Source: a virus
Taxonomy: Duplodnaviria > Caudoviricetes
Direction: 5' to 3' (one strand)
IMG/VR virus record: IMGVR_UViG_3300018430_000021
Coordinates: 32,001-96,000 of that record
Length of the DNA stretch: 64,000 bases
The notes under the pieces were generated by a model. It did no database searches. It was not told the DNA's origin and saw only the letters and a program-made list of their open reading frames with translations. Both the position numbers and the translations under genes were made by a program. Positions 9,507 to 52,575 of this stretch are shown piece after piece (the stretch's first letter is position 1; each line of letters opens with the position of its first letter).

Positions 9507-9557
9507 TTTCTAATTATTTCTATTTACAAGATATTCAGAATTTACTATATTATAGTC

Positions 9558-9845
9558 ATGGAAATCAATAAGACTATTAAAATTAAACACGGCCGCGGCC
9601 AATCGATGCTAGAGTTAAAAATCCGCAACATTCTGGATGTCGTAAAATCGACGGGATATATCGAGCTTAGATTCTGGAGTCCGGAAGATAGCCATAAAAA
9701 GTTTTTATACATTTTCGACGACGAACCGATTACGTGGTACGACAAGGACGGTAACGAATCCACTGACTACGAGAAGTTGGTAGATACGTTGTCGGTTTAC
9801 GCCGAACAGACGAAACTAAAAGATGCCCTGGCAAGTCTGAATTAA
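9558..9845 (+). CDS. Hypothetical protein, leaderless, C-terminal tail (KDALASLN)
   Basis: ATG 6 nt after TATATT. Confidence 0.75.
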   Translation: MEINKTIKIKHGRGQSMLELKIRNILDVVKSTGYIELRFWSPEDSHKKFLYIFDDEPITWYDKDGNESTDYEKLVDTLSVYAEQTKLKDALASLN

Positions 9846-9915
9846 AACTCAATTAGATTTTGATTTACAAGACTTTTAGAATTTTCTATATTATAGTCAT
9901 GCAAGAGAGGTTAAA

Positions 9916-10221
9916 ATGGTAATTCACGGTACTAATAGTGATGACATGCCGATACTGTTTGATACGACGAAGATCGATGCAACATACTGTTGCCAGAATG
10001 ATCACGGTTTATGGAAAGTTGTATTGACCCTTAGTAACGGCCTGGAATTCTGGTTGCCGCGATATAACACTATCAAAATCAACGGCGTCAACATTATGCA
10101 TGAGGGCGATATGGCTAAGTATAAGAAGATGGCCGAGGTCATCAATACAATCATTGATCTCGAACGTCAGGACCCTCCGATAGACATGGAAAAGTACGCT
10201 GAGATTGGCAAGTCGAAGTAA
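9916..10221 (+). CDS. Hypothetical protein, paralog of 10748
   Basis: Shared INGV and DPPxDxxK motifs. Confidence 0.75.
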   Translation: MVIHGTNSDDMPILFDTTKIDATYCCQNDHGLWKVVLTLSNGLEFWLPRYNTIKINGVNIMHEGDMAKYKKMAEVINTIIDLERQDPPIDMEKYAEIGKSK

Positions 10222-10275
10222 AGAAAAACTAAATAAGTCGTTTCCAAACTTCTAATAATTTCCTATATTATAGTC

Positions 10276-10674
10276 ATGAGCATTAACAAGACATCAAAAC
10301 TGCTTCGCATTCTTAAAACACATACTGGTCTGATTCAAACAAAGCCAGTCGGAAAGGAATTGAGGTTTGACTACAACTTTCAAGGGTTTCATCTGCCTGT
10401 TGTAGAACCGTATCTCATGAGTGAAGGTTATCTTCAAAAGAAGTATTTTTGGATTTATAACTTTTTTGACTATTCACACCTGCATGACTATTGCATGGAA
10501 GACATATTGTCTGGTAGAAATAATGTAAACAATAATACTGTATTCGTAGTCCAGTATGACAGGATGACAGTGCCCAAGCTGCCTAAGTTTATTGACCAAC
10601 AAATTGAATACATCCAAAAGGCTATCATGCGGTTTGAACAGCAAAAGATTGAAAAGGCATTGGATGCTCTGTAA
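10276..10674 (+). CDS. Hypothetical protein, leaderless, C-terminal tail (EKALDAL)
   Basis: ATG 6 nt after TATATT. Confidence 0.75.
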   Translation: MSINKTSKLLRILKTHTGLIQTKPVGKELRFDYNFQGFHLPVVEPYLMSEGYLQKKYFWIYNFFDYSHLHDYCMEDILSGRNNVNNNTVFVVQYDRMTVPKLPKFIDQQIEYIQKAIMRFEQQKIEKALDAL

Positions 10675-10747
10675 TAAAATTCTTTAAACAAATCGTTTCC
10701 AATCTTCTAACAATTTTCTATATTATGAATATCAACGAGAGGCTATA

Positions 10748-11089
10748 ATGTTTATCACCGGCTATAAAACAATGAATAACATAAAAGTCCCGATGTGTTT
10801 CGAGACAAAGGACATTTGCGCTATTATACCGTTTTTGAATGACGGACATTATTGGGAAGGTCGAATAAGGAAGGAAGACCGCGTAATAACTATCTTTCTT
10901 AATACGATAGGCGGGCAACAGATCGGTATTTCTGATGGCGAAACTATCATGATTAACGGTGTTCCGGTAACGAATGACTGCACGGAAAATGCACTTAAGA
11001 TTATCGAGCACTTTATGATGTGCATGAATCTGGAGACTACTGATCCTCCCGTGGACTTGGACAAGCTGAAAGAAAAAGTTAAGAAATAA
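10748..11089 (+). CDS. Hypothetical protein, paralog of 9916
   Basis: Shared INGV and DPPVDLDK. Confidence 0.75.
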   Translation: MFITGYKTMNNIKVPMCFETKDICAIIPFLNDGHYWEGRIRKEDRVITIFLNTIGGQQIGISDGETIMINGVPVTNDCTENALKIIEHFMMCMNLETTDPPVDLDKLKEKVKK

Positions 11090-11127
11090 AGGTTTACAAC
11101 ATTCGGATATTTAACTATATTTAGAAC

Positions 11128-11424
11128 ATGAAACGAATCAAGATTGAACGCCTCACGGAAAAAGACTTATTTATCCCGTATGAGAAGATAGTTGGAGTAA
11201 CCGGCGGGCCAAGTACGATTCTGATAGATTACAAGACCGTCGACGATATGGGCTGGCATGTATGGCTCGCAAACGAGACCACGATGAGCTGGACAAGAAT
11301 CGACGACGACGGAAGCCAGGTAAAGAATACGCTGGTAACTAACGAGGATTTCAAGGCGTTTGTCGAATTCCTCACCGCAGTTGCCAAACAGAACGAGAGT
11401 GTCAAGGCGATAGAAAGTTTATAG
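11128..11424 (+). CDS. Hypothetical protein, leaderless, C-terminal tail (VKAIESL)
   Basis: ATG 6 nt after TATATT. Confidence 0.75.
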   Translation: MKRIKIERLTEKDLFIPYEKIVGVTGGPSTILIDYKTVDDMGWHVWLANETTMSWTRIDDDGSQVKNTLVTNEDFKAFVEFLTAVAKQNESVKAIESL

Positions 11425-11516
11425 TTATGGAACACCGCAATAAAAATTTTACTAGATTCCGGGTTTACAAGTTCCAAGAATTTAACTATAACAATAAACA
11501 AAAAGGAAACAAAATC

Positions 11517-12047
11517 ATGAGTACTAAAAGTGCAGAAGAAACCATCCGCGGACTGATTCAGGCCGCTAAGGAAAACGCTCCCGAACACCAGACGGTCGAC
11601 GGAATCGAATCCTGGAAGATTACCATGGACGGTGAAGTCTACAAGGTGTCTGTCGCGGACCGCAAGGCGAAGACCGGTCGAGCGTTCAACTGTCATGGCC
11701 TGGTGAAGATTCTCCCGGACGGAACGGAAGAAACGGTTAACCTCGGCGCCTGGAAGAAGAAGTTGTTCTACACTCTGGCCTACAACCTCCAGCAGGGCAA
11801 GGTGTTCAAGAAGAACGAACAGAATCCGACCAAGGTGAAGGCAATCGTCAAGGACATGAAGGAAAACCCGGCCAACTACACCAAGAGCGAAGACCTTATC
11901 CAGGGCACGTTCAACGGCAAGCCGATTACCGTTTCCCGCACGAAGAAGACCTACAAGTCTGGCAAGAGCATGTATCGCATCACGATGAGCGAATGCGGCA
12001 TCGTCACCCTGAAGGGTTCCCAGCTCCAGCCGCTCTTCAAGGCATAA
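11517..12047 (+). CDS. Hypothetical basic protein
   Basis: AAGGA RBS; codon usage typical of highly expressed genes. Confidence 0.8.
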   Translation: MSTKSAEETIRGLIQAAKENAPEHQTVDGIESWKITMDGEVYKVSVADRKAKTGRAFNCHGLVKILPDGTEETVNLGAWKKKLFYTLAYNLQQGKVFKKNEQNPTKVKAIVKDMKENPANYTKSEDLIQGTFNGKPITVSRTKKTYKSGKSMYRITMSECGIVTLKGSQLQPLFKA

Positions 12048-12128
12048 CCGAAAGAAAAAACCCAAATGTTTCTGTTTACGCCTTGTCCATGGTTTTCTAT
12101 ATTGTAATTAACAACGAGAGGAAAGATT

Positions 12129-12290
12129 ATGGACAAGGCTAAAGAAACAAAGAGAATGCGTGATGAAAGAATCAAAGAATCCGAAAACGGTCGCAAGCTC
12201 CGAACCAAAACTGTCCGAGACCGAACAAAGTATACCCGAAAAGGAAAACTTCGTTTTGACAGTAAAACAGGAGAGATACAACGGCCTTAG
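12129..12290 (+). CDS. Small basic protein (53 aa) with RDRTKYTRKGK motif, loosely ArfA-like
   Basis: Promoter and GAGAGG RBS before ATG 12129; not in the ORF track. Confidence 0.6.
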   Translation: MDKAKETKRMRDERIKESENGRKLRTKTVRDRTKYTRKGKLRFDSKTGEIQRP

Positions 12291-12510
12291 CCGCAACATC
12301 TACGCTGTTGACCTCGTGAAGATCGAAGAAGACGAATATGACCCGGAGGAATACGAACTGACCTATAACGGGCCGGGCGGAACACATACGTTGTCTATTC
12401 GTAAAAAGGACACGTACCTTGTCAACGGAAAGGAAATCCCTTTCGAAAAGGTACAGGCCTATCTCGAGAACCTGAGGACCGCTGCTGTAATCGATGCTCT
12501 CCCGGAATAA
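12256..12510 (+). CDS. Hypothetical protein with C-terminal tail (AAVIDALPE); start uncertain (TTG 12256 or GTG 12160)
   Basis: AAGGA RBS before the TTG. Confidence 0.6.
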   Translation: MTVKQERYNGLSRNIYAVDLVKIEEDEYDPEEYELTYNGPGGTHTLSIRKKDTYLVNGKEIPFEKVQAYLENLRTAAVIDALPE

Positions 12511-12588
12511 TTATTTTCTTCCTTGTCGTTTACAAAAAGAGAAAATTATTCTATATTAAAAATATCAACCAACAACAAGAGGTAATAA

Positions 12589-13233
12589 ATGTCTGAAAAG
12601 AACGAATCCGTAGAACAGAAGGCCGAAGCCCAGCAGGAAGCACCCAAGGTCATCTACATCTACAAGAAACACAAGAACAAGAAGAAAAAGAAGACGAATC
12701 CCAAGCCCTGTCACAACGGCGGTTATCGCATGGCCGATTTGGAAAAGGTCATGACTCCGCTCGAACTCGCCCAGTATAACAAGAAGAAGGAAGATCTTAA
12801 CAAGGCCCTTACGGAACTCAACAAGCTCAAGACGCAGGCCAACAACCTCAGTGAATATACGGACCGGGTGTTTAATCGCCTCAGTCTCGGTAACATCGAC
12901 GGTTACATCAAGCTTCTCTCCAAGCAGGTCAGACCGCTTCTTGAAAATATCAAGCGCTGGAAGAGCTGTGTCAATGATATTCGTGCCGATATTAAGGGAA
13001 TCCTTGCACCGGCCATCAAGCGTCTTGACAATATCAATTCCAAGGAACCGTACAAGCCGCAGGAAGTTCTTCGCCGCTTTACAGCCGATGTCAAGGCCGG
13101 CGAAAGCACTCCGAAGAAGGGAAGCTACACCCTCAGCCGACACGATGCTCTCGTGCTTGTGAAGGAAATTTCCGATGTCATCACTGGAAATCCCAAGGCA
13201 CAACGCATTGAAATCTTTATCGCATCGAATTAG
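12589..13233 (+). CDS. Hypothetical coiled-coil protein with lysine-rich patch
   Basis: Own promoter and RBS. Confidence 0.8.
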   Translation: MSEKNESVEQKAEAQQEAPKVIYIYKKHKNKKKKKTNPKPCHNGGYRMADLEKVMTPLELAQYNKKKEDLNKALTELNKLKTQANNLSEYTDRVFNRLSLGNIDGYIKLLSKQVRPLLENIKRWKSCVNDIRADIKGILAPAIKRLDNINSKEPYKPQEVLRRFTADVKAGESTPKKGSYTLSRHDALVLVKEISDVITGNPKAQRIEIFIASN

Positions 13234-13340
13234 AGTTTATCCTCTAGTTGATTGGGACGGACGATCTACAGGATCGCCCGTCTTTTTATTTGGCAATATT
13301 TTATGTTTACGACTTCTATGTATTTTATTATATTTGGAAT

Positions 13341-13724
13341 ATGAGGTTATTACTAAACATTGAACAGATTGCAAAAGAACTTGGACTTGAATGCTGGAAC
13401 GAATCCGGTTTTGTCAATGTCCGAATCGGTATGGCTGACTGGGATGGGACAGGTATCGAAACCGACATGGTTATAAAATACTATCATGGACCATATACCG
13501 ACGAATGGGGTCATACCGCGATGAAACGTGAAGAATTCCAGTTGATAACTAGACAACTATTCCCCGGGTCTATATCTTTAAACTACATAGACAACGATGA
13601 CAAGCTTTTTTCGTTCTTGGCTGGGTTTATATTGGTCAAGAATGATATTGGCTCATGGAGAAAAAACTACATAACTGCCCAATATAACCGGGAAATGGAA
13701 GCGATGCTGGCGGTCCTGAGCTAA
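13341..13724 (+). CDS. Hypothetical protein, leaderless, C-terminal tail (EAMLAVLS)
   Basis: ATG 6 nt after TATATT at 13329. Confidence 0.7.
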   Translation: MRLLLNIEQIAKELGLECWNESGFVNVRIGMADWDGTGIETDMVIKYYHGPYTDEWGHTAMKREEFQLITRQLFPGSISLNYIDNDDKLFSFLAGFILVKNDIGSWRKNYITAQYNREMEAMLAVLS

Positions 13725-13778
13725 AAATTCTCTTCCGTTCCTGTTTACATCTTCCGAATATTTACCTATATTATAAGC

Positions 13779-14123
13779 ATGGAAGCAAAAGTAAGTTCTT
13801 TAACAAATGCACAGGTCAAACAGTTACGTGCAGAAGGTATATTGGATTCGGAAGGTGCATATAACCTGCCTACTTCATCGTTTTTTGAAGCACTTACTGT
13901 AAACAATATGCTTTGGGAGTATAAGGAAAGCGAGTTTGACAGTTGTTATCTAAAAAACGGTAGACTAGAGTGTAAGTTTGAGCCTGGCTCAGTACCTGTC
14001 GTTAAAAGTAGCCGTAAAGAGTTGTATAATTATGCGGTAACTGTGCATAAGAGGCTTTGGTCCATTTATAATAAGCTTCGCAACAAGGAACTGTTGGACA
14101 TGATTGATAAGAACCTGGGATAA
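13779..14123 (+). CDS. Hypothetical protein, leaderless, C-terminal tail (LDMIDKNLG)
   Basis: ATG 6 nt after TATATT. Confidence 0.75.
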   Translation: MEAKVSSLTNAQVKQLRAEGILDSEGAYNLPTSSFFEALTVNNMLWEYKESEFDSCYLKNGRLECKFEPGSVPVVKSSRKELYNYAVTVHKRLWSIYNKLRNKELLDMIDKNLG

Positions 14124-14203
14124 TCCGTAATAAAATTTCCTTTGGTTTGAGTTTACAACTTCCGACTATTTAACTATATTTAGAACATAAACAAGAGGTT
14201 ATA

Positions 14204-14698
14204 ATGTTTATCGAATTCTTCAAAAGATTTTTGCCCGGTGTTAAATCGTTCCATGACATGGTGCAGGACAGGAAAAATTATATCGATGCGCTCCGTAGAA
14301 CTACACCGTCGATTTTAAGAAAGAGTCTAAACCATGTAACAGACCGTAAGTTTATGAAAGATCTCTTGAGACGTCTGTATTGTTATAAGGACCATTCTGT
14401 TCGTTATCGGATTGTCTTTACAGATAACCTCACTTATGGTGGTAGTCTCAAAACCATTTTTAATATAAACAAGAATTTTGGCCTTGCATTTGACGAATCT
14501 GAAATCAGGTTCTATTTCAACAACGATTTACAACTTGCCGATTACGACTATGAAACAACGATAAAGGAAACGCTTGACCAAATCTTAAGTCCTTATGACC
14601 TTATGGTTATACAGGATGACTACCATAGAAATATAATAACTCCTGTCAGCGATGCCGATAAGGAACTTGCGACCTATTGTCGTAATGCCTGGGACTAA
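14204..14698 (+). CDS. Hypothetical protein
   Basis: Own promoter and RBS. Confidence 0.75.
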   Translation: MFIEFFKRFLPGVKSFHDMVQDRKNYIDALRRTTPSILRKSLNHVTDRKFMKDLLRRLYCYKDHSVRYRIVFTDNLTYGGSLKTIFNINKNFGLAFDESEIRFYFNNDLQLADYDYETTIKETLDQILSPYDLMVIQDDYHRNIITPVSDADKELATYCRNAWD

Positions 14699-14776
14699 TC
14701 GAAAAGAATTTTAGAAAAGATTTGGCTTACAACTTCTAAATCTTTTTCTATATTAAGAATATCAAAAGAGGAATAA

Positions 14777-15667: not shown

Positions 15668-15685
15668 AGCTATATTGATAGCGTT

Positions 15686-15759
15686 GGATGGATAGCTCAA
15701 TCGGTTAGAGCTCCGGACTCATAACCCGTAGGTTCTCGGTTCAAGTCCGAGTCCATCCA
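15686..15759 (+). tRNA. tRNA with CAT anticodon (elongator Met or Ile2; not initiator)
   Basis: Acceptor GGATGGA/TCCATCC with paired G1-C72, D arm gctc..gagc, loop ctCATaa, T arm ctcgg-ttcaagt-ccgag; promoter TTGACA 15648 / TATATT 15671. Confidence 0.88.
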
Positions 15760-15766
15760 TGAAAGC

Positions 15767-15839
15767 CTTCAGGTAACACTGAAGGTTTTTTCTTTATATA
15801 ATCGGTTTACAACTTCTAAGTATTTAACTATATTTAGAA
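15767..15839 (+). repeat. Terminator plus promoter direct repeat, copy 1
   Basis: cttcaggtaacactgaaggttttttctttatataatcggtttacaacttctaagtatttaactatatttagaa, identical to 16590-16662. Confidence 0.9.
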
Positions 15840-15859
15840 CATAAACAAGAGGTTATTAA

Positions 15860-16555: not shown

Positions 16556-16589
16556 GATGATTTAAATAATATTTGATATTTTTCGCAAT

Positions 16590-16662
16590 CTTCAGGTAAC
16601 ACTGAAGGTTTTTTCTTTATATAATCGGTTTACAACTTCTAAGTATTTAACTATATTTAGAA
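16590..16662 (+). repeat. Terminator plus promoter direct repeat, copy 2
   Basis: Identical to 15767-15839. Confidence 0.9.
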
Positions 16663-16663
16663 T

Positions 16664-16984
16664 ATGATAACGTTAAAGCTAAGATATGATAAGACAGTTT
16701 CGTTGAATTCTCGAGTTTGTGACATAGAGAATATATCGATGGCGTTCAGTAGGGTACTGGACGAAGGGTATATCAATGTGACAAAGAAATGTGTCCCACC
16801 GATACAGATATATACGCCGCGAAACGTGGACCAACGGATTACATTTTACGATTCCGGACGGAAGATGAAGGAATTTGTTTTGCCGGCGAATTCGGGCGTA
16901 AAAACGTTAATTAACATGTGCGAACAGGTTAAAATGTTCAACGAGTACGCGAAGACAATCACTGCGATAGACAATCTGAAATAA
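16664..16984 (+). CDS. Hypothetical protein, leaderless, C-terminal tail (ITAIDNLK)
   Basis: ATG 6 nt after TATATT. Confidence 0.75.
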   Translation: MITLKLRYDKTVSLNSRVCDIENISMAFSRVLDEGYINVTKKCVPPIQIYTPRNVDQRITFYDSGRKMKEFVLPANSGVKTLINMCEQVKMFNEYAKTITAIDNLK

Positions 16985-17058
16985 AATATTAAACAGGTTT
17001 TATTTACAACATTTGAATATTTAACTATATTTAGAACATAAACAAGAGGTTATTAAGT

Positions 17059-17508: not shown

Positions 17509-17559
17509 AACCTTTATGGTTTTATTTACAGCTTCTGGATATTTAACTATATTTAGAAC

Positions 17560-18102
17560 ATGAAAAAGAAATACGAATTTACGGAAATTACCGTTAACGA
17601 TGCCGGATTCATCATGCATCAAATCCGAGCGCTCAAAGACTTCGATGACGTGAAAGCTGGTGACCTTGGCGGCTTTATCCTTAACGAAAGCAATCTGTCT
17701 CACAAGGGTAATTGCTGGGTCTATCCTGGTTCTTTCATCGGAAACAAGGCCAGAGTGACCGGCAATGCAAAGGTAAAAGGCAATAGTGTTGTTCGTAATA
17801 CGGCCAGGGTTTATGAAAATGCGGTCATTGACAACGGTGCGGATATTTACACCGCGGCTAGGATTCATGGCAATGCCTATGTTGGCGGTCAGTTAGAAGT
17901 TAACCGTTCAGAAATCTGTGGTGATGCTCATGTAGAAGGTCATGGTATCGGTTGCCATATCTCAGGGCAGACAGTTATCCGTGACAATGCACATGTATAC
18001 CTTGAAGAAATGTCCATCTATGGAAAGATTATCAAGGACAATGAAAAAGTTGTTAAGATTAAATCACATAAAGAAACGATGGAAGCCCTTGCCAAGCTGT
18101 AA
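17560..18102 (+). CDS. Hexapeptide-repeat (left-handed beta-helix, LpxA-like) protein, leaderless, tail (EALAKL)
   Basis: IRALKDFDDVKAGDLGGFI..NLSHKGNCWV and A-x-V-x-G-N repeats. Confidence 0.8.
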   Translation: MKKKYEFTEITVNDAGFIMHQIRALKDFDDVKAGDLGGFILNESNLSHKGNCWVYPGSFIGNKARVTGNAKVKGNSVVRNTARVYENAVIDNGADIYTAARIHGNAYVGGQLEVNRSEICGDAHVEGHGIGCHISGQTVIRDNAHVYLEEMSIYGKIIKDNEKVVKIKSHKETMEALAKL

Positions 18103-20915: not shown

Positions 20916-21018
20916 CGATGGATGGACGCACGGCAGAACGAACCGTGCAGGAAAGACGAGAGTAAAATCTCGTCTTTTTCTTATTTAAAATTACTTCTAA
21001 ATTTTCTATATTATAATC

Positions 21019-21432
21019 ATGAGCGTAATTCTTAAAATCGAATGGTTAAATCGTTATACGAATAACTGCGGGCCGACAGGTTCCGTACAGGGTTCGTTCC
21101 AGGCCGGATTAAAGTTTATCAAGGCGGAAATGGAATGGTTTGGCGTAGATATAAAAGAAATGACAAAACCCGACGATTACTCAAGTTATGTTGCAAGACA
21201 TGTTAGGTTCGCGGAACCGGCTGTAATGACCGGACCTCCACACCAAGAAAGCGGTGAATATGACCAAAGGCTCACCATATTCGACCACATGACCGGTGAA
21301 GTATTCTATAAGGCTGAGATGCTGGCAAGAAACTATAAACCCGGTTCCAATGAACCGTTTGAACTGTACAGAGAAGTAATCTATAACATAATGAAATATA
21401 AGGCGGTCATACCTATTGTTGAAAACCTGTAA
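21019..21432 (+). CDS. Hypothetical protein, leaderless, paralog of 28319, tail (PIVENL)
   Basis: MSVIL..EWFG.DIK..YDQRL. Confidence 0.8.
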   Translation: MSVILKIEWLNRYTNNCGPTGSVQGSFQAGLKFIKAEMEWFGVDIKEMTKPDDYSSYVARHVRFAEPAVMTGPPHQESGEYDQRLTIFDHMTGEVFYKAEMLARNYKPGSNEPFELYREVIYNIMKYKAVIPIVENL

Positions 21433-24208: not shown

Positions 24209-24225
24209 CCAAGGGGAGGAGACAA

Positions 24226-28241: not shown

Positions 28242-28318
28242 CCTCCTGGAAAGCCCGCGGGAAAAATTCCTGCGGGTTTTTTATTTACAAAACCTTCGGA
28301 ATTAATTATATTATAGTC

Positions 28319-28711
28319 ATGAGCGTAATTCTTGAAATTCAATATTTGGAAAGATATAATACTGACCGTGTGAAAAAGGGACAGATTCATTACGCAGATC
28401 CTATTTCGTTAAAAGAAGTAACGGGTTCTTCAATAGAATGGTTTGGACTGGACATTAAATGGGAAAACAGTTTTGGCGATATTCAGCATATTGAGTTCTG
28501 CGAGCCCTGTGCATCATTAAAGTATGACCAACGGCTTATTATCTACAACGACAAGACAAATGAAGAATTCTATAGAGTCGAACAAATCCAGGAAGAAAAC
28601 AGAAAATACAAAGACCCGGAGCGATGCCAGCGGGCGTTTGCTATTTGTCGTGATGCCCTTTGGAACATAGAAAAATACAAGACGATAATCGCTATTGAAG
28701 AAAACCTGTAG
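28319..28711 (+). CDS. Hypothetical protein, leaderless, paralog of 21019, tail (IAIEENL)
   Basis: ATG 6 nt after TATATT. Confidence 0.8.
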   Translation: MSVILEIQYLERYNTDRVKKGQIHYADPISLKEVTGSSIEWFGLDIKWENSFGDIQHIEFCEPCASLKYDQRLIIYNDKTNEEFYRVEQIQEENRKYKDPERCQRAFAICRDALWNIEKYKTIIAIEENL

Positions 28712-40648: not shown

Positions 40649-40891
40649 TTAACAGCTGTGCACCGTCCAGAGCATGCAGGCCGTTGACTCGACCCATATC
40701 CTGTCAGACTTGAACTCTTCACGACGGGCGAATCTATCGTGCAATAGAGTGGCCGTTCCCAGCCAATTCTTCTGCTGGAGAATCTCCTCGACCTCTTCAG
40801 CCGATAAATGCTCCGCCCGGCCATCGTCTCCAGGGAATAGGCCAGCGAGCAGTTCCTTTCTTACTTCTGCGGTGAATTCTTCTTCGTTCAT
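40649..40891 (-). CDS. Hypothetical protein, leaderless
   Basis: ATG 6 nt after minus-strand TATATT. Confidence 0.65.
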   Translation of the reverse strand: MNEEEFTAEVRKELLAGLFPGDDGRAEHLSAEEVEEILQQKNWLGTATLLHDRFARREEFKSDRIWVESTACMLWTVHSC

Positions 40892-40941
40892 GACCATAAT
40901 ATAGAAATAACCGTCAGTTCCGTCAATAGGTAATTATCGGG

Positions 40942-44280: not shown

Positions 44281-44321
44281 AGGGCTTTACGTATCTAGTG
44301 TATATTGCTATATTGTATTAT

Positions 44322-44714
44322 ATGTCGGATTATTATGATAATTACGAGAATTGTGAGAAATATCTGTTAGAACACGGATATACACGGTATAAGTGTAACG
44401 TGTTGGTTATAGATGCGTTGTTCAGCGTGATGTACCTTAAGGATTCCGACCATATGAAAATAAACCTGCTTTACGGGAAGAGCGGCGAACGGTGTAACAT
44501 GACTTGTTCTGTCAATTACAGCGGGAAGATGGGACCGCAGTTCTGGGAAAGGATCGCGTCTACATATGAGTCTCATGCCCGGGAGCATTTCAGGTTCCGT
44601 GTGGACAACGAGGATTTTCTTAGGCTGGTTGGCGATAACGACTATAATACAGTCGAGATGGCGTTCCGGAGGCACGAGATGGAGAAGTCGTTGGAGGTTC
44701 TGGATGGTGTATAA
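44322..44714 (+). CDS. Tandem paralog family member 1 (near-leaderless)
   Basis: C..L..GY, IASTY, FL..V, KSLEVLDG. Confidence 0.8.
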   Translation: MSDYYDNYENCEKYLLEHGYTRYKCNVLVIDALFSVMYLKDSDHMKINLLYGKSGERCNMTCSVNYSGKMGPQFWERIASTYESHAREHFRFRVDNEDFLRLVGDNDYNTVEMAFRRHEMEKSLEVLDGV

Positions 44715-45075
44715 CTGCGTTACGTGCCTGGACATGCTTATAAAGGCCGGATATAACATGGTAGATACGTACCATGTCGGCGAAGACAGTACCAAGCTGC
44801 AGTTCGAGAAGGATAACAGCATTGTGGCCGCGTATACCTATAACGGGAGTTCTAACGGTTCCGTGTGTATTATAATGTATTGTTCGATTTACGGGGAAGG
44901 TTCGTATACGAACGTGGCCTCTACGTACTGTACGGGCGACAGCGCGATATACGAGAACGTAGATACTGGGAAATTTCTGGAAATAGTGTGCAAATATCCT
45001 GCAATAGAATGGATGGAGAGGTTCCACGCTTACGACTTGGAAAGGAAACTGGAGGTTCTGGATGGAGGGATATAG
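44704..45075 (+). CDS. Tandem paralog family member 2
   Basis: CLDMLIKAGY, VASTY, FLEIVC, KLEVLDG. Confidence 0.8.
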   Translation: MVYNCVTCLDMLIKAGYNMVDTYHVGEDSTKLQFEKDNSIVAAYTYNGSSNGSVCIIMYCSIYGEGSYTNVASTYCTGDSAIYENVDTGKFLEIVCKYPAIEWMERFHAYDLERKLEVLDGGI

Positions 45076-45451
45076 GTCGCCGGATATTATAAAGGGCGAG
45101 TGTTTTCGGAAGCTTGAAACTAACGGTTTCGTAGACACTTACACTTACAGCAAGAGTACTCATCTTACGGGCTGGACGTTCACGAACGAGACATATCCGG
45201 AAAGGGGCTATATCATAGTCTATACCGGGAAGGAAGCCGGGATGAACGGCATAGCGATGGTTTGCGAGATTGGTTCCGGTGAGGACAAGGTGAACGTGGC
45301 GGCCACATACGAAAATCCTTTCAGCATGTACAAGCGGGTTCCGATAGACATATTCCTGGAAACGGTGTGTAAATATCCGACGAACGAATGGATAGAGCGG
45401 TTCCACGCGTACGACGTAAAGAGGACTCTGGAGGTACTGGATGGCGCTTAG
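45062..45451 (+). CDS. Tandem paralog family member 3
   Basis: VAATY, FLETVC, TLEVLDG. Confidence 0.8.
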   Translation: MEGYRSPDIIKGECFRKLETNGFVDTYTYSKSTHLTGWTFTNETYPERGYIIVYTGKEAGMNGIAMVCEIGSGEDKVNVAATYENPFSMYKRVPIDIFLETVCKYPTNEWIERFHAYDVKRTLEVLDGA

Positions 45452-45797
45452 TTACGAAATGGCGGAAAACATGCTATTAGGTAGCGGTTTCAAGGTTACG
45501 ACCGAGGCGCTCTGTACCAACGGCTGCGAGCTTATCATGTTCGGTAAAGAAAATACGGAAATTGAATGCTATAAGGGCGGTCAGCTCAATAAGGAGCTTC
45601 TGTTGATGTGTTCAATCTGGGACAAAAAGTCTTTGGCAAAGACACACGTGGCGGCGACGTTTACCAGCAGGTCGTGCATGTTCGTGCGTGTTTGCGAGGA
45701 AACATTCATGGATATAGTGTGTAGACATCCTGAGACGGAATGGATGACGCTGTTTAACGAGTATGACGTAAAGAAGACACTGGAGGTTCTTTCCTGA
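45441..45797 (+). CDS. Tandem paralog family member 4
   Basis: VAATF, FMDIVC, TLEVLS. Confidence 0.8.
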   Translation: MALSYEMAENMLLGSGFKVTTEALCTNGCELIMFGKENTEIECYKGGQLNKELLLMCSIWDKKSLAKTHVAATFTSRSCMFVRVCEETFMDIVCRHPETEWMTLFNEYDVKKTLEVLS

Positions 45798-46165
45798 TGG
45801 AACGTACTTTCGATTTTTGCAGCGAGATGCTGACATCCGGCGGTTTCGCGAGGCGGACTGACGGGGAATACGACCTGAGCGTTAGCATGAGGCTTATACA
45901 GTTCGAAAAGAAGGATATTATCATAAACTGTTACAAAGGCCCTCGAGATATATGCGACATGGGATGTTTCATTCGTACTCCCGGTACGGACGACTGGGAA
46001 CTTCTGGCGGCCACTTATTGTCCTGATGTTCAGAAGTTTACGTACGGCGGTGTCGACACTGACGATTTCCTGTCGATCATATGCGAAAACAGGGTTGACG
46101 AACTGCGGCAAAAATTCTATAATTACGATATTGAGAAAAAGCTTGAGGTCTTGAATGGAATTTAG
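45797..46165 (+). CDS. Tandem paralog family member 5
   Basis: LAATY, FLSIIC, KLEVLNG. Confidence 0.8.
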   Translation: MERTFDFCSEMLTSGGFARRTDGEYDLSVSMRLIQFEKKDIIINCYKGPRDICDMGCFIRTPGTDDWELLAATYCPDVQKFTYGGVDTDDFLSIICENRVDELRQKFYNYDIEKKLEVLNGI

Positions 46166-46535
46166 GCGCTGTAAGGAGATGATTATTGATGCCGGGTTTG
46201 AACCCAACTGGATTGGTTCCCTGAACGAGGAAACGACTATCCATGCGTTCTATAACGACTTTTTCTATCTCCAGGTATATTCGGACCGCCGCGAGACCGT
46301 AGTCCAGGGCATAGACTTGCATAAGTTCGATATTCCGGGTAACAGGAGATCGAAGACTTCCGCGGTCTGTACTACCTACAAGAATTTCGAGGGCGATATT
46401 CTGTTCAAGGGATTACACCAGAACATTGCCGGTGTCGTCAGGATTATATGCAACAACGCTGACCATCCCGAACGTATCAACTTGAAATTACAGGAATTTG
46501 TGGCGGACATGGTTTTGAGGCCGTTGGAAGGTTAA
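46155..46535 (+). CDS. Tandem paralog family member 6
   Basis: CKEMIIDAGF, VCTTY, IIC. Confidence 0.8.
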   Translation: MEFRRCKEMIIDAGFEPNWIGSLNEETTIHAFYNDFFYLQVYSDRRETVVQGIDLHKFDIPGNRRSKTSAVCTTYKNFEGDILFKGLHQNIAGVVRIICNNADHPERINLKLQEFVADMVLRPLEG

Positions 46536-46536
46536 T

Positions 46537-46941
46537 ATGAATATAGACGATCTTATCGAGAAGTTTGAACATTCGCTTACTCCGGAAGACGGAGAGAAGT
46601 ATACGGCTCGGCAGATTATCGCCAAACTGGGCGAGCATGGCTGGAAGAACGATATTAATGAATGTACGAACAACAAGCACGTGTTTTTAAAAGACAAGTA
46701 TCATTTTTTAATTACGCACACGAATATTAAGGAATACGATGACGGTTATCCGCTTATCAAGCTGTATAGTAACGACGTCCTTCTTACATCTTCCGGAACT
46801 GACATATTCGAGGAATTTAAAGGCGTATTTCCTGAAATTAACCCGACAGCGCTTACGAAATTGATTGAGAAAGATACGGATATTTACAACGAACTGAACG
46901 AGTACTTCGTAAATAAGGCTTTGAAAAATTTGGAAGGATAG
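46537..46941 (+). CDS. Tandem paralog family member 7
   Basis: LGEHGW, KALKNLEG. Confidence 0.75.
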   Translation: MNIDDLIEKFEHSLTPEDGEKYTARQIIAKLGEHGWKNDINECTNNKHVFLKDKYHFLITHTNIKEYDDGYPLIKLYSNDVLLTSSGTDIFEEFKGVFPEINPTALTKLIEKDTDIYNELNEYFVNKALKNLEG

Positions 46942-46942
46942 G

Positions 46943-47320
46943 ATGAGCTATACTGCTTTACAGATGTTTGATAAGCTTGAAAAGGCCGGGTATCATTGTT
47001 GTCACTGGTCCAATATCAAGCACGGTTATAGGAAAGGTGATTACTTGGTTGTCGTCATGCATGCCAGTTTATGGGGTGATAATCCAGGCGATGACAAATT
47101 TCCGCATGTCGAGATATATCGTAACGATACGCTTATCTGTGCATCGTATATTATCAAGAACCATAATTGGAGTAAGGCCATGATTCCTGTCGTACTTACG
47201 CCGGATGAGCTTTTGAATATAGCGGTAAATTTCAGCGATAACATATTTAATATCATTATGGAAAGGTATGTTGACATGACTTTGGAGAAACTCGATGAAA
47301 AACCGCAAGTTAAGTCATAA
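46943..47320 (+). CDS. Tandem paralog family member 8
   Basis: LEKAGY, ICASY, TLEKLD. Confidence 0.8.
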   Translation: MSYTALQMFDKLEKAGYHCCHWSNIKHGYRKGDYLVVVMHASLWGDNPGDDKFPHVEIYRNDTLICASYIIKNHNWSKAMIPVVLTPDELLNIAVNFSDNIFNIIMERYVDMTLEKLDEKPQVKS

Positions 47321-47666
47321 TTATGTTATTGAACGTATGCGTGGTACCGGTTATCGTATGACTTCGGATGAAACCGATGACGGTCTGGCAATGAAGTTCA
47401 CTACGTTTAAACGTAACAATCTTGAGCTTATTATACATTATGATTATTACAGCAGTATCGTAAAATCCATAAATGTCGACAAGCCGCCTAATACCAGTTC
47501 GCATTACCTGATAGCGACGACAACTCATGGGATATACGAATACGAGAATTGTGTCGAGATGAGTATTGACGAACTTTTCGATTATATTATAAGCTGTAAG
47601 ACGACTGAAGAACTGGAAATGAGAATTGAAATGCATGGTATGAAACAGGCACTGGAGTTGTTGTAA
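47295..47666 (+). CDS. Tandem paralog family member 9
   Basis: TGY, IATT, QALELL. Confidence 0.8.
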   Translation: MKNRKLSHNYVIERMRGTGYRMTSDETDDGLAMKFTTFKRNNLELIIHYDYYSSIVKSINVDKPPNTSSHYLIATTTHGIYEYENCVEMSIDELFDYIISCKTTEELEMRIEMHGMKQALELL

Positions 47667-48073
47667 TGGCTAATGGTCCAATATATCCGGAAAAGATGAA
47701 GTATTACATGAATAAACTCGAAAAAGCGGGTTATGAATATCGTCATGACCGTGATATTACAAGTGATGATGGACTTGTGATAACCGTTACTTATACAAGA
47801 AGTGATACCAACGACTTCTCTGAAATTATAATACATGTATATTATACTCGTAAAGTTAATAGATGTTATCTGACATGTAGTTTGCGTAATCCGCAAACCA
47901 ATATATGGCATTCCGCCTGTTCATTCGATGATGACCGAAATGCTTATCGTTTTAACGGTTTACATACAAGTACGCTTACCCGTATTCTATGTAACGGTAA
48001 AAATAATGACCAGATATTGATGGAATTGAATAAGGTTGAACTGAAGAGCGCCTTGGAGAAACTCGATGGATAA
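47666..48073 (+). CDS. Tandem paralog family member 10
   Basis: LEKAGY, ILC, SALEKLDG. Confidence 0.8.
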   Translation: MANGPIYPEKMKYYMNKLEKAGYEYRHDRDITSDDGLVITVTYTRSDTNDFSEIIIHVYYTRKVNRCYLTCSLRNPQTNIWHSACSFDDDRNAYRFNGLHTSTLTRILCNGKNNDQILMELNKVELKSALEKLDG

Positions 48074-48434
48074 GAAAAAACAAAGATCCGTTAATTATTA
48101 TATGGTCCATCTTACAAATGCTGGTTTTGAAGAAGACTCAAACGATTACGGTACGGCGGCTTTTAGTTTCCGTAAGTTTTATAAACCTGGATATGAAGTA
48201 TGGGTATTGAAAGATTATACAAACCAGCATCTTAATATATGTTGTGTAAAATGCGAGCGTGGTAAAGTACCAGAAATAAATATTGCTTGTACATATAAAA
48301 ATTCTACATTTATGGTAGAAAAAGCGGATTTGAATTCTTTATTTAAAATTATTTGTAAGCATGAACCGGAAACTTGGATAAAGATTTTTGCAGAATATAA
48401 TACAAACCGTATTTTAGGAGTTCTTGATGGATAA
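48066..48434 (+). CDS. Tandem paralog family member 11
   Basis: LTNAGF, IACTY, IIC, ILGVLDG. Confidence 0.8.
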   Translation: MDKKKQRSVNYYMVHLTNAGFEEDSNDYGTAAFSFRKFYKPGYEVWVLKDYTNQHLNICCVKCERGKVPEINIACTYKNSTFMVEKADLNSLFKIICKHEPETWIKIFAEYNTNRILGVLDG

Positions 48435-48791
48435 GCTTTTTCCGGAATGTAACCATTTGCTTATTGAAGCTGGATATGCTTATAATGGTTTGATGTGTGC
48501 TTGGGGTGATGTTAAGATACATGGATATAAAAAGGAAATCTTTATGTATCTATCAGTTTATTTGGCGAAGATATAAAGGATCTTGATATTACTTGTCATA
48601 TTGGTACAACAATGGTTGCTACGTCTTATACTAAAGATTCATTGTGTAACAACGATGCATTATTTTATTCAAATTTTTTAGAAATATTTGATATGGTTCT
48701 TCATCATGATGAAACCGATATTGTAAAGGCTTTTAGTGAGAAAGAATTAAATAAGACCTTGGAGGTTTTAGATGGCAATGATAACGCTTAA
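48427..48791 (+). pseudogene. Tandem paralog family member 12, frameshifted in the A-run at 48529-48533
   Basis: Frame 1 gives CNHLLIEAGY; the -1 frame gives VATSY and KTLEVLDG. Confidence 0.75.
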
Positions 48792-49131
48792 ACATTGTTA
48801 TAAGAAATTGCTTCATTACGGATTTAAATGTATAGAACATACTAAAGGTGCACACGAATGGGCTAAATTCGCAAAAGATGATATGACTATACACGTCTAT
48901 AATGATTATACAGAACAAACTAAAGTTTTCAGTATGTTATGTTTAATAAACGGTGAAAAGATTGCGCATACTCTTGGAAACGGTAATCATGCATCTTATG
49001 ACACAAGATATATGTTCAGTGGTTTTGAACATGAACAATTTTTAAATATAGTCTGCATCGGAAAAAGTAACGAAGTTTTAGAAACATTCCGAAAAATCGA
49101 TGTTGAACGAACGCTTAAGTTGTTACCTTAA
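48772..49131 (+). CDS. Tandem paralog family member 13
   Basis: CYKKLLHYGF, FLNIVC, TLKLLP. Confidence 0.8.
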   Translation: MAMITLKHCYKKLLHYGFKCIEHTKGAHEWAKFAKDDMTIHVYNDYTEQTKVFSMLCLINGEKIAHTLGNGNHASYDTRYMFSGFEHEQFLNIVCIGKSNEVLETFRKIDVERTLKLLP

Positions 49132-49169
49132 GGGTTTACAGTTTTATATTTTTTAATTATATTGTGATT

Positions 49170-49517
49170 ATGAAATACAAGAAATGCCGACAGATGTTAC
49201 TTGATGCTGGTTATTATGAGGTTAACTGGGCTGATCTTTATGTATGTCGTTTTCGAAAAGACCGTTATAAGGTAGTTGTATCACAAAATGAATCCGGTAA
49301 CGTAACACGTATTATTTGTTTTGATGAAAAAAATAAACTTGGTAAAGAAGGAAGACTTATTGACACAAAAACCGAAAAAGAACATAAAGACGGTATTTTC
49401 TTTCTAATTCACGGCATTTCAATGCAAGATACTTTGGATATGGTGTGCGGGGATCTTAATCGTCTTGAAGCAAAAATGAATAATTATCTTACATTGGAAG
49501 CCATAGAGAAACTATAA
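49170..49517 (+). CDS. Tandem paralog family member 14, leaderless
   Basis: Promoter 49135/49158; CRQMLLDAGY; EAIEKL. Confidence 0.8.
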   Translation: MKYKKCRQMLLDAGYYEVNWADLYVCRFRKDRYKVVVSQNESGNVTRIICFDEKNKLGKEGRLIDTKTEKEHKDGIFFLIHGISMQDTLDMVCGDLNRLEAKMNNYLTLEAIEKL

Positions 49518-49858
49518 TGCGACTCGAATATGTAAAAAACGTACTTGACAATAACGGTTATCATATCGACGATAAGTCGGGTTGGACTGTCGATGCTTCT
49601 CGAGGTAACATTAAAATCTATGCTACCTGTCCTTATGATAATATTGGAAATGTACAGCTTATAACCATTTATATTGATGATACGCGAGCTATTTCCAGTG
49701 TAAGCACGTATTATACAGATATTCCTAAAATGTTTAAGTATAATAATTTTGAACTTAACGAAATTATTGCCCTTATTGAAAACAGTAGAAATTCAGGCGA
49801 TTTACTTAAATATGCCGGTGAATGGACTACGGAGAAAATCTTAAATGTATTACAGTGA
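49517..49858 (+). CDS. Tandem paralog family member 15
   Basis: LDNNGY, KILNVLQ. Confidence 0.75.
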   Translation: MRLEYVKNVLDNNGYHIDDKSGWTVDASRGNIKIYATCPYDNIGNVQLITIYIDDTRAISSVSTYYTDIPKMFKYNNFELNEIIALIENSRNSGDLLKYAGEWTTEKILNVLQ

Positions 49859-50228
49859 AGATGACTATGGTTTAGGATGCGAAGCAAATGATGTATTAAA
49901 CCGGCTTATACGGGCCGGTTATCGATTTAATTTTTCCGATGTAAATTCCAGAGACGTTAGGCACATGTATAAAGATGATATAAACGTGTATATATCATTT
50001 CATACTAATAAAGGAAAAAGTTATGTCGATAGTATGCAATGCGTAAAAAATGAAGTAGGAATAGCTACTACATATAAAAAAGCATATGTTAATAGTTTGC
50101 CTATACAATATATGTTTTGCGAAGTTGACCCTATTACATTTATGACAATAGTATGCAATAAGACAAATAAGCTGGTTCAAGAATTCGCTGAATGGAACGC
50201 AGACAAGATATTGTCAAAACTTAAATAG
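49845..50228 (+). CDS. Tandem paralog family member 16
   Basis: LIRAGY, IATTY, FMTIVC, KILSKLK. Confidence 0.8.
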   Translation: MYYSEDDYGLGCEANDVLNRLIRAGYRFNFSDVNSRDVRHMYKDDINVYISFHTNKGKSYVDSMQCVKNEVGIATTYKKAYVNSLPIQYMFCEVDPITFMTIVCNKTNKLVQEFAEWNADKILSKLK

Positions 50229-50229
50229 C

Positions 50230-50991
50230 TTAATGTTCAATTCCTATTGCTTTGATAAGTTCCTGTGGTACCACCGCAAGGAACTGTTCTTTTTCTACAT
50301 CGGTAAGATTCTTGAAGTCTGTACGGGCGAATCCCTTGAACACAATATCAGCCATGAGATTCTTGGTAATAATATCGAGCTCGCCTGGAGAAACTTTTAA
50401 TGTTTCGACTTCGTTTCTTCCCTTAACAACAGATTCCATTTCATGGAACTTGTAAAGCGTGACCAACTGCATGAGCCAGCAAGGATCATATTCTGCAAAG
50501 AAATCCCAGACAAAGCCCGGAAGAATTTCCGGCCACGGTGATTCACAAAGAAGTTCCACCTGTTCACGCATCATGTTCGGATGAAGAAGACTGTGACTGA
50601 GTTTAATATCCTTCAAATCTTCCTTGGAAAGTTTCTTCTTGAAATTCTTGGTATTGTATTCCATACCCTGAGCGTGACGAACCTTAAACGCTTTCTTTCT
50701 CAAACGGGAGATTGATTTCTGTTTTGCCTTACGCTTGATAGCGGCTTTCTTCTGGCCTTTCTTACGGTTGATTCTTTCTTTGTTTGTAATGAATACTTCT
50801 TTAGGCTGTCCAGACTTTCTGTCAATCTGAACACGGTATTTACCCTTACGAGTAGTAACCCACTTAACGACACGCTTGCCGTTTCGAATAACGAATTTCT
50901 TTTTAAGAGCTTCGTCAAGAACCTGAAGATTTTCTTCGGTTGGTTCTTCCAAGTATTGTGCGTTATTCTGTGTGTATTCTAAGAAGTTCAT
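50230..50991 (-). CDS. Basic prohead-core-like protein (gp68-like) with acidic extension
   Basis: IRNGK..ERINRKKGQKKAAIKRK; paralog of 50994. Confidence 0.5.
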   Translation of the reverse strand: MNFLEYTQNNAQYLEEPTEENLQVLDEALKKKFVIRNGKRVVKWVTTRKGKYRVQIDRKSGQPKEVFITNKERINRKKGQKKAAIKRKAKQKSISRLRKKAFKVRHAQGMEYNTKNFKKKLSKEDLKDIKLSHSLLHPNMMREQVELLCESPWPEILPGFVWDFFAEYDPCWLMQLVTLYKFHEMESVVKGRNEVETLKVSPGELDIITKNLMADIVFKGFARTDFKNLTDVEKEQFLAVVPQELIKAIGIEH

Positions 50992-50993
50992 AA

Positions 50994-51326
50994 TTATTCC
51001 TCTGGTCGACCGATTTCGAGACCTAATCTTTCAGCCTTGTCCTTACCTTTTTCAATATGTTTCTTTATCTGACCCATTTTGGCGTTGCGTTTCATCTGAC
51101 CGACTTTTTGACCGCGCTTTCTATTGGCTATTTCTTTACCGGACATTTTAACTTCTACACCGTCCTTCATCTTATAGCCTTCCTTGTCGGAAACATATTT
51201 GGTTTCTTTCTTGCCGTTACGAACCCTAATATCCTTATGTTTTTCGTTTAACACCTTTTCATCATCCAAGGTGAACGGTTCCAAATGGTCTTCTACATAT
51301 TGTATAAAATCGGAAAGTTTACTCAT
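50994..51326 (-). CDS. Basic prohead-core-like protein (gp68-like)
   Basis: LNE then VRNGK..GYK..VKMS..RKRGQK; late promoter upstream. Confidence 0.5.
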   Translation of the reverse strand: MSKLSDFIQYVEDHLEPFTLDDEKVLNEKHKDIRVRNGKKETKYVSDKEGYKMKDGVEVKMSGKEIANRKRGQKVGQMKRNAKMGQIKKHIEKGKDKAERLGLEIGRPEE

Positions 51327-51330
51327 ATCA

Positions 51331-51338
51331 TATTTATA
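51331..51338 (-). promoter_or_regulatory. T4-type late promoter TATAAATA
   Basis: Exact consensus on the minus strand before 51326. Confidence 0.65.
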
Positions 51339-51366
51339 ATCTTAAAGGATTTACTATATTTACTTC

Positions 51367-52575
51367 ATGGACTTAGTATCAATAGAAGAAGGCACAAAAG
51401 ATTATCAAATGTTACAGAACAGAAACTTAATTTCTGGTGTTACCGAATTCTTTTCTAAAATTAAAAAGGAAGATTCCGATGATTTTAAACCGGATCCTAA
51501 TGCGGATGAATATGAATTATTCGCTGAACTTTTAGATAAGAATAAACCGAATAGTAGCGAGCTCGCATGGATGGAATCATATACGAAGAAAATCGTAGAT
51601 GAGAAAGCCACGGAATACGGCGTAAATCTTACCGAAGCCGAACATGCACTTAATCAGCTTGTCGAACAACTTACTGAAGTGAGAGCAAAAGAATTTCTTG
51701 CCCTTGACGGTTATGAACGAAATCGTTTCTTATTGCTGGTTGTCGCAGGTATCTATATTCAGATGAAGTCTGGTCTTGGTTTCACATTTACATACGACGG
51801 CAGCGAAGATTATTTCTTGCAGTTCTTTACACCGCGACAGGACTACGTTTTTGCACTTCGTTTCAAGAGAAAGTTTAAATTCTCTTGGAAAGAAATTGAA
51901 TATACACTTTATGCAAAATCCTTCATAGATAATTATACCAAGGATTTCACGGATCCGACCAGTTATGACTGGTTGGAACTTGGAAAGTATTTATCTGATT
52001 TATTCCTTGAAATGTGTAAGGAAATTGTTGGAATTATTACAAGTCATTTGAATAAAGTACAGCATACATGTAAAGATTTAAACGATTTGGACAATTTGAT
52101 TAATACTTCTGACCCTTATTTGAAAAAGAAATTCGATGAAAATTTGGAAGCTAATCACCATCGTTTTACGAAAAAGAATTTTTCGCAGGCTGATGACCTT
52201 TTAACGAAAATAAATTTTTACAAACAGGGTCTTGGCGAGCTTTCTTATTATATCATGCAAGATGAAAATATTACAAAGTATATTCCTGGCATGAGCGATG
52301 AAGTTAAGCTTTCAACTATCGGTTACGGTGTAGAATATACTGTTATCGGTGGAATTTATAACAGCTTAAGGAATATCGCTTTTGTATTGTTCGGTAATAT
52401 GTTTGCAATATGTTATTCCGGATTAACACTTCGTACAAACGCATTGATGGGTCTTGAAACCTTATGGAAAATGGATATTGGCAAACTGGTACAGGATTTT
52501 GAACCATTTTATCAGAAGTATAAAATGAATCAGGAAAAAATCAACCAGTTAATGGATATAGAATTTTTCATGTAA
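51367..52575 (+). CDS. Hypothetical protein, leaderless
   Basis: 402-aa ORF; ATG 6 nt after TATATT. Confidence 0.8.
   Translation: MDLVSIEEGTKDYQMLQNRNLISGVTEFFSKIKKEDSDDFKPDPNADEYELFAELLDKNKPNSSELAWMESYTKKIVDEKATEYGVNLTEAEHALNQLVEQLTEVRAKEFLALDGYERNRFLLLVVAGIYIQMKSGLGFTFTYDGSEDYFLQFFTPRQDYVFALRFKRKFKFSWKEIEYTLYAKSFIDNYTKDFTDPTSYDWLELGKYLSDLFLEMCKEIVGIITSHLNKVQHTCKDLNDLDNLINTSDPYLKKKFDENLEANHHRFTKKNFSQADDLLTKINFYKQGLGELSYYIMQDENITKYIPGMSDEVKLSTIGYGVEYTVIGGIYNSLRNIAFVLFGNMFAICYSGLTLRTNALMGLETLWKMDIGKLVQDFEPFYQKYKMNQEKINQLMDIEFFM

Follow-up and report, generated by a model that had tools for sequence, protein, structure and literature searches.

Promoter-fused, predicted leaderless genes and their association with a C-terminal motif in a T4-like jumbo gut phage

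The window analysed here is a 64,000-nucleotide (nt) stretch comprising bases 32001-96000 of one 291,102-bp virus contig (IMG/VR record IMGVR_UViG_3300018430_000021; CheckV completeness ~70%), and its subject is a set of genes whose ATG is fused directly to the promoter, such that the mRNA is predicted to carry no leader (here called leaderless), many of them encoding proteins that end in a shared C-terminal motif (here called the tag). From base 1 to ~44000 the window consists mainly of single-gene cassettes under one promoter family, with a TTTACA-like -35 hexamer, N17 and a TATATT -10 box, of the sigma-70 host type (T4-early-like) with an A/T-rich upstream element. At 13 sites the TTTACA-like -35 is followed by a 17-nt spacer (16 at 51367), TATATT, 6 nt (7 at 44322) and the ATG of an open reading frame (ORF) of 80-402 codons, no sequence resembling a Shine-Dalgarno (SD) site being scored upstream. 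This bears out an earlier sequence-only reading, which had listed the same 13 ATGs as lying 6 nt past TATATT (7 nt at 44322) with no ribosome-binding site. Leaderless genes are named below by the window position of their ATG, and lengths are in amino acids (aa). The cassettes, the paralogue array to which two of them belong, and one counter-example are as follows.

9523..9845, + strand: leaderless cassette, 95-aa tagged protein of predicted PH-like fold; -35 at 9523, -10 at 9546-9551, ATG at 9558.
10241..10674, + strand: leaderless cassette, 132-aa tagged protein; -10 at 10264, ATG at 10276; architecture kept in the related metagenome loci L014-L017.
11093..11424, + strand: leaderless cassette, 98-aa tagged protein of predicted PH-like fold; -10 at 11116, ATG at 11128.
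13306..13724, + strand: leaderless cassette, 127-aa protein with a weak tag; ATG at 13341; architecture kept in L014-L016.
13744..14123, + strand: leaderless cassette, 114-aa protein with a tag variant ending NLG; ATG at 13779; orthologue in L014.
16629..16984, + strand: leaderless cassette, 106-aa tagged protein; ATG at 16664; kept in L016.
17525..18102, + strand: leaderless cassette, 180-aa left-handed beta-helix protein with a C-terminal tagged helix; ATG at 17560.
20984..21432, + strand: leaderless cassette, 137-aa protein, paralogue of 28319; ATG at 21019; kept in L015.
28284..28711, + strand: leaderless cassette, 130-aa protein, paralogue of 21019; ATG at 28319.
40649..40926, - strand: leaderless candidate, 80-aa protein without tag; ATG at 40891; weaker -35 and low coding score.
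44286..44714, + strand: leaderless first gene of the paralogue array, tagged; ATG at 44322, 7 nt after the -10.
49135..49517, + strand: leaderless tagged gene within the paralogue array; ATG at 49170; related to array member 46155.
51333..52575, + strand: leaderless candidate, 402-aa protein without tag; ATG at 51367; 16-nt spacer and high coding score.
44715..50228, + strand: rest of the paralogue array (49170 excluded), with 10 or more tagged genes, all SD-led or translationally coupled rather than leaderless.
9864..9922, + strand: counter-example, in which the ATG at the predicted transcription start (+1) of the 9887 promoter opens a 7-codon mini-ORF (9899-9922), followed by the SD-led gene 9916.

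The promoter-to-start-codon fusions form a discrete class that is conserved in relatives, as supported in silico by promoter geometry, chance controls and comparison of related loci. In 95 of 114 gene-proximal promoters the seventh position past the -10 box is occupied by A; C or T comes before this position in 100 of the 114, and no other position downstream of the -10 is as conserved (1.89 bits, 114 promoters). A pyrimidine followed by a purine is the usual start signature of sigma-70 transcription, and as the conserved pyrimidine-A matches it, the A of the promoter-fused ATGs is the predicted +1. The SD-led cassettes carry the same promoter and 6-nt discriminator, then AT, then A or C, then a leader of 15-22 nt with AAGAGGT, which is present in ~65 cassettes and whose sequence is conserved beyond the SD core. 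One promoter subtype serves both gene classes, tagaac leading straight into ATG at 11128 and 17560 but into ATA and a leader in the SD-led cassettes at 14175, 15829, 17026 and 18147. The same promoter family also stands before two RNA genes: tRNA-Leu (8834-8919) and tRNA-Met (15685-15760) each start 8 nt past TATATT (8820-8919 and 15671-15760, promoter included), so their primary transcripts would be almost without a 5' leader, an RNA-gene counterpart of leaderless mRNAs.

Leaderless candidates number 13 in the window and ~30 in the contig, about a quarter of promoter-proximal genes. The contig holds 153 promoter-like sites, 114 of which adjoin genes, and a scan of 20 kb for promoters returned 96 sites where 46 were expected. 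With AT as the +1/+2 consensus, just a G at +3 is needed to make an ATG, and the frame that follows is the real test. Among the 153 sites, 18 of the 20 that have an ATG at offset 6 have an ORF of 80 codons or more starting there, compared with 5/35 for ATA, 3/22 for ATC and 5/17 for AAA (13/74 together; Fisher p 3e-9), and start-type triplets at this offset comprise 20 ATG, 0 GTG and 0 TTG. Measured from the -10 box, called starts cluster at 6-9 nt (29 promoters) and at 21-28 nt (65 promoters), with none at 10-14 nt, a gap that is partly there by construction, the gene caller having given a score bonus to promoter-fused ATGs. The first 36 nt of leaderless ORFs are less structured than internal windows (-1.5 vs -3.9 kcal/mol, p 2e-6); SD-led starts exhibit the same contrast, the 5' ends of both classes being A-rich and unstructured. 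Selective avoidance of G at +3 in SD-led promoters was considered and rejected: G occurs in 1 of the 52 promoters with AT at +1/+2, but T in 0/52 too, so the scarcity of G follows from the A/C consensus of the leader and is no avoidance of ATG as such. In the 9887 cassette, where the gene behind the +1 ATG is SD-led, the mini-ORF shares sequence with the SD and start codon of that gene (9916) and terminates immediately beyond its ATG; the arrangement is present in L014 too, with different sequence, and contig position 280279 (minus strand) is a possible second case.

Related phages keep the fusion. In metagenome loci L014-L017, which share 67-95% identity over the 11128 protein, the arrangement of TATATT, six bases and ATG is retained for the orthologues of 10276 and 11128 and, in those loci that reach them, for 13341, 13779, 16664, 17560 and 21019 also. 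The L014 orthologue of 13779 has a two-codon in-frame indel immediately after the ATG, and the ATG still lies 6 nt past the -10. Among database homologues of 9558 (56-67% identity) some have over-extended ORF calls that translate the promoter in frame, and homologues of 10276 (80% identity; P0059) are likewise extended N-terminally through the promoter. In these read-through extensions the -10 box and six bases directly precede the Met, so the arrangement is kept down to 56% protein identity. Within the 11128 family (15 orthologues, 72-96% identity) no change is seen in the last five residues or in 11 of the first 13, and homologues of 10276 at 39-42% identity retain the C-terminal motif. Scans of IMG/VR with the 21019 protein, the 11128 protein, alignment A2 and the promoter-plus-ATG pattern found nothing, as did a scan of GTDB genomes with alignment A2.

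The tag was scored with a position weight matrix (PWM) built from non-leaderless proteins only, the threshold being the 99th percentile of internal windows, and in parallel with a regular expression. In the window 10 of the 13 leaderless proteins are tagged by PWM or regular expression, 11 by eye with 21019, against 10/59 SD-led promoter-proximal genes. These numbers reproduce the 11/13 leaderless genes and roughly 8-10 of ~60 SD-led cassettes of the sequence-only reading, which had however left out 15 more tagged genes among the 55 with no qualifying promoter just upstream, 10 of them in the 44322-50228 array. The genome-wide Fisher test that it had proposed finds the association persisting on the 291-kb contig: tagged proteins make up 12/30 leaderless vs 40/393 other genes by PWM (odds ratio (OR) 5.9, p 5.5e-5) and 14/30 vs 40/393 by regular expression (p 1.8e-6), with an overall range of 12-15/30 leaderless tagged, an OR of 6-8 and p of 1e-5 to 1e-6. 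The excess is present among promoter-proximal genes (12-14/30 leaderless vs 10/81 others), among proteins of 80-200 aa (12-14/23 vs 30-32/211) and inside the tag-rich block at contig 19.9-61 kb (9-10/12 vs 14-16/64), the last of which rejects regional confounding as the full explanation. The further claim that leaderless genes almost coincide with tagged ones did not survive: genome-wide ~23-27% of tagged genes are leaderless, about three quarters being SD-led or translationally coupled, and 15/30 leaderless genes have no tag. Most of these 15 untagged candidates map to contig 167-270 kb, with good promoters and with coding scores that are high. The leaderless architecture is a general habit of the phage, not the mark of the tag class.

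Our favoured account, held with moderate confidence, is that these are genuine promoter-ATG fusions and that the tag enrichment most likely arises from co-inheritance within families, not from a dedicated translation route; a duplicated cassette would bring along both the promoter-ATG fusion and the C-terminal helix. The tagged leaderless genes are mostly small (95-137 aa), and tandem clusters hold several of them. Clear paralogy links 21019 to 28319, the array family includes 44322 and 49170, and a leaderless gene at contig 25351 is related to an SD-led gene at 23612 (z 6.9). The earlier notion of the tagged proteins as a class with a separate translation route is contradicted by paralogues that keep the tag yet differ in leader status, namely 44322 and 49170 against the rest of the array and contig 25351 (leaderless) against 23612 (SD-led), and for this reason a family trait copied with the cassette is rated above a dedicated route. 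Co-inheritance within families explains the enrichment at least partly.

The region 9558-11089 contains a further repeat. Leaderless 9558 is followed by SD-led 9916 and leaderless 10276 by SD-led 10748, 9558 and 10276 share their first residues, and 9916 and 10748 are paralogous, which points to a duplicated two-gene module of a leaderless tagged gene and then an SD-led gene.

Protein relationships were sought with BLASTP, phmmer on protein bodies, Smith-Waterman z-scores, hmmsearch, jackhmmer and hhalign, and nothing rose above controls except 21019/28319, the array, contig 25351/23612 and a weak match between 9558 and 11128. These last two proteins have no BLAST-level similarity, and their profiles align collinearly from end to end (hhalign E 1e-3). 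Structures were predicted for these two only: the AlphaFold (AF2) models, with a predicted local distance difference test (pLDDT) score of 91.6 for 9558 and 92.6 for 11128, have the same order of seven strands and a long C-terminal helix, at residues 72-97 in the seven-stranded 11128 model, and return nearly the same list of structural matches, almost all the top ones PH, PTB or FERM-F3 domains, at Z of only 5.1-6.6; Foldseek on the models gave nothing at E<=0.001. Both proteins are predicted to share a PH-like fold, a seven-stranded beta sandwich with a C-terminal capping helix, and in these models the final two turns of that helix form the 'tag'. Chou-Fasman secondary-structure prediction reached a three-state accuracy (Q3) of just 0.6 on the two models and was discarded. 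Searches of Pfam with 11 leaderless proteins and of PHROGs with 10 gave no match except for 17560, those of 44322 and 51367 in Pfam being below cut-off and at chance level, and the ESM Atlas offered no lead for the 21019 protein. The 17560 protein has weak, sub-threshold Pfam matches to hexapeptide repeats of the left-handed beta-helix (LbH) type and strong PHROG matches of unknown function. Its family is widespread in phages (phrog_5070); here it bears an extra C-terminal helix of ~30 residues ending in the shared motif, most relatives in other phages aligning only to about residue 147 and all having different ends.

Several observations weigh against co-inheritance of genuine fusions as the whole account. 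Most tagged leaderless proteins have no detectable similarity to one another, and 17560, a different fold with an added tail, means that at least one combination of tag and leaderless start arose separately. In the early block the tag goes with leaderless status even when genes are stratified by the arrangement of 3' end and next promoter, so the two features may be functionally linked. Terminator-like hairpins lie upstream of the 16664 cassette (16587-16610) and the 21019 cassette (20950-20979), and no terminator-like site was seen between the upstream gene and 10276, 11128, 13779 or 17560, such that read-through transcripts would carry these four ATGs internally.

It is also conceivable, though we consider it unlikely, that the tagged proteins are co-regulated as a set, leaderless translation keeping their synthesis out of reach of regulators that target the SD or the initiation region in other early mRNAs. 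The RegA protein of T4 acts on the initiation regions of early mRNAs to repress them. A RegA-family gene is common to T4 and the phage here: a repressor of this family (PF01818; 78.1 bits vs a cut-off of 25) is encoded on the minus strand at G000:C1:96588-96848 (L018), ~600 nt beyond the end of the window. The near-invariant SD leader could be the target of this RegA homologue, its conservation beyond the SD core being compatible with a common operator, and as leaderless mRNAs have no such leader their escape from shut-off is plausible. The persistence of the association genome-wide, among promoter-proximal genes and within the tag-rich block speaks for a co-regulated set, as does the conserved architecture in relatives; the SD-led or coupled majority of tagged genes, the untagged half of the leaderless ones and the paralogues split by leader status all speak against it. 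RegB was searched for and not found, an absence that proves nothing in a contig that is ~70% complete. A more specific version appears doubtful, in which one promoter family would serve two translation regimes, the SD leader being repressible by a RegA-type or other factor and the small PH-like tagged proteins made from leaderless mRNAs persisting past the shut-off.

A function for the tag was also sought in the sliding-clamp-binding C-terminal tails of T4 gp43 and gp55 (PMC2988020). Like the tag, these tails (taken from AF158101; that of gp43 ends SLDFLFG) are acidic, hydrophobic and C-terminal, and they share with it a Leu at two matching positions, Asp/Glu and often Gly. A sliding-clamp-binding reading was rejected, the two aromatic residues of the T4 motif (S-L-D-F-L-F/Y) being absent from the tag; sliding clamp, polymerase and gp55 genes were not found in the contig, whose ~70% completeness makes their absence no proof.

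The DNA around the 3' ends of genes raises another explanation, which seems similarly doubtful: a compact cassette design in which the 5' end of the gene is fused to its own promoter and the 3' end runs into a fixed element whose translation ends the 'tag'. An upstream element is shared by 108 promoters, with G at -34 and -33, C-Y-G at -27 to -25 and an A-tract (counted from the -35 hexamer), and it is also present where no gene is called (G at -33 in 30/45). It lies ~24-34 nt before the -35, for example at 10666-10695, 21424-21453 and 28703-28732, and a gene that abuts the promoter in the right frame reads it as Leu, a residue with a G-first codon (Asp/Glu/Ala/Gly), any residue, Leu and stop. 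In six tagged leaderless genes the last Leu codon occupies the C-Y-G of the element and ends exactly 24 nt before the next -35. Genes 28319 and 28785 have identical ends (28700-28738 and 28950-28988), covering the last three codons, the stop, 21 nt and the next -35, which suggests that a gene 3' end and the following promoter may move as one module. Leaderless genes of the early block abut the next promoter in 10/13 cases, compared with 33/101 for others. The DNA may therefore shape the final one or two residues of the motif. Abutment does not raise tag frequency among non-leaderless early genes (7/33 vs 14/68), however, array genes are tagged without a downstream promoter, codons vary in the upstream half of the motif, and the motif is kept in the distant 10276 homologues noted above; as a full explanation of the association, 3' abutment is rejected by the stratified counts.

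Assembled contigs (Logan) from gut and rumen metatranscriptomes, which cannot show 5' ends, contain relatives of the cassettes at 90-99% identity in rumen and sheep-gut RNA libraries. Some of these RNA contigs start 18-38 nt inside leaderless genes (10276, 11128, 13341) with no upstream extension, a weak hint only, and others span cassette boundaries (e.g. 10298-12687). It is improbable that the genes are not leaderless in vivo, with starts elsewhere or read-through and SD-independent internal initiation on an AU-rich region: the bridging RNA contigs, the four of 13 genes with no terminator-like site before them and a start predicted from promoter geometry only would fit this, but the exact spacing (offset 6 in 11 of the 13 sites), the conserved +1 A, the two promoter-to-start distance groups with no intermediate leader lengths and, as a weak hint, the RNA contigs beginning inside leaderless genes do not.

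As separate observations on the same libraries, RNA contigs of related phages (window 9001-29000) join distant cassettes at promoters (9892 to 20054, 14771 to 19277), and in one relative the 21019 promoter is joined to an SD-led gene exactly at +1/+2. By these junctions cassettes appear to be shuffled by recombination at promoters.

For genuine promoter-ATG fusions, the favoured account, the geometry suggests that host RNA polymerase would start at the A of the ATG, giving an mRNA that begins with AUG, and that the ribosome would recognise this 5'-terminal AUG without an SD, a use described for other leaderless mRNAs (PMC9031893). Should read-through place some of the ATGs inside longer transcripts that offer them no SD, efficient translation would be limited to transcripts that start at the gene's own promoter.

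Several known systems share parts of this arrangement. In Deinococcus the -10 box as a rule abuts the ORF (PMC12340547, PMC4007540), and in Actinobacteria this is common. As in the phage, Deinococcus-Thermus and Actinobacteria (see also PMC4633059, cited in PMC8244752) have many genes per genome with a -10 box ~6-7 nt before an AUG that is the start, and no SD. They differ in that the phage genes have neighbours with mostly strong SDs under the same promoter family, make up about a quarter of promoter-proximal genes rather than half of a genome, and have predicted starts. The lambda cI mRNA from PRM and other phage and transposon leaderless mRNAs are reviewed in PMC9031893, and ribosome binding via the 5'-terminal AUG is described in PMC2553737 (cited in PMC5312081). 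Like lambda cI, the phage here would make AUG-first mRNAs with host RNA polymerase and translate them without an SD (a prediction in this case); the lambda cI type concerns single regulatory genes of temperate phages, whereas here there are ~30 genes, many in early cassettes. Jumbo phages phiKZ, with no leaderless transcript among 65 mapped starts (PMC8244752), and AR9, with leaders of 26-491 nt from mapped starts (PMC5312081), also have many short early transcription units and a conserved AT-rich promoter, but use their own RNA polymerases, the phage here having a sigma-70-type promoter. In E. coli, 5'-terminal upstream AUGs (uAUGs) occur on SD-led mRNAs (PMC4965119), an order of AUG at +1 and then SD-led gene that matches the 9887 cassette; the latter is a single case in the window, and the main start codon is hardly passed when its 7-codon frame ends.

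Discussions of leaderless initiation usually concern Actinobacteria, Deinococcus, archaea and a few repressors of temperate phages; to our knowledge it has not been described for T4, and neither of the two jumbo phages with mapped starts shows it. A T4-like jumbo gut phage with about a quarter of its promoter-proximal genes in a predicted leaderless mode is a new case of a known phenomenon. One promoter that comes with either a strong SD leader or none offers a natural side-by-side system for studying dosage, timing or escape from repressors such as RegA. Gene callers extend leaderless ORFs through the promoter or may miss them, which puts early genes of similar phages at risk of mis-annotation. 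The models also caution against reading a shared C-terminal motif as a free-standing sorting tag, as in at least two proteins it is the end of a predicted capping helix.

Elsewhere in the window (83-3509, 8967-9449 and 57900-59528) lie a DUF2201-type putative metallopeptidase gene and a gene for a MoxR-like AAA+ ATPase, both in early cassettes, an HNH endonuclease gene and a gene for a GroEL-family chaperonin (PF00118, E 2e-67).

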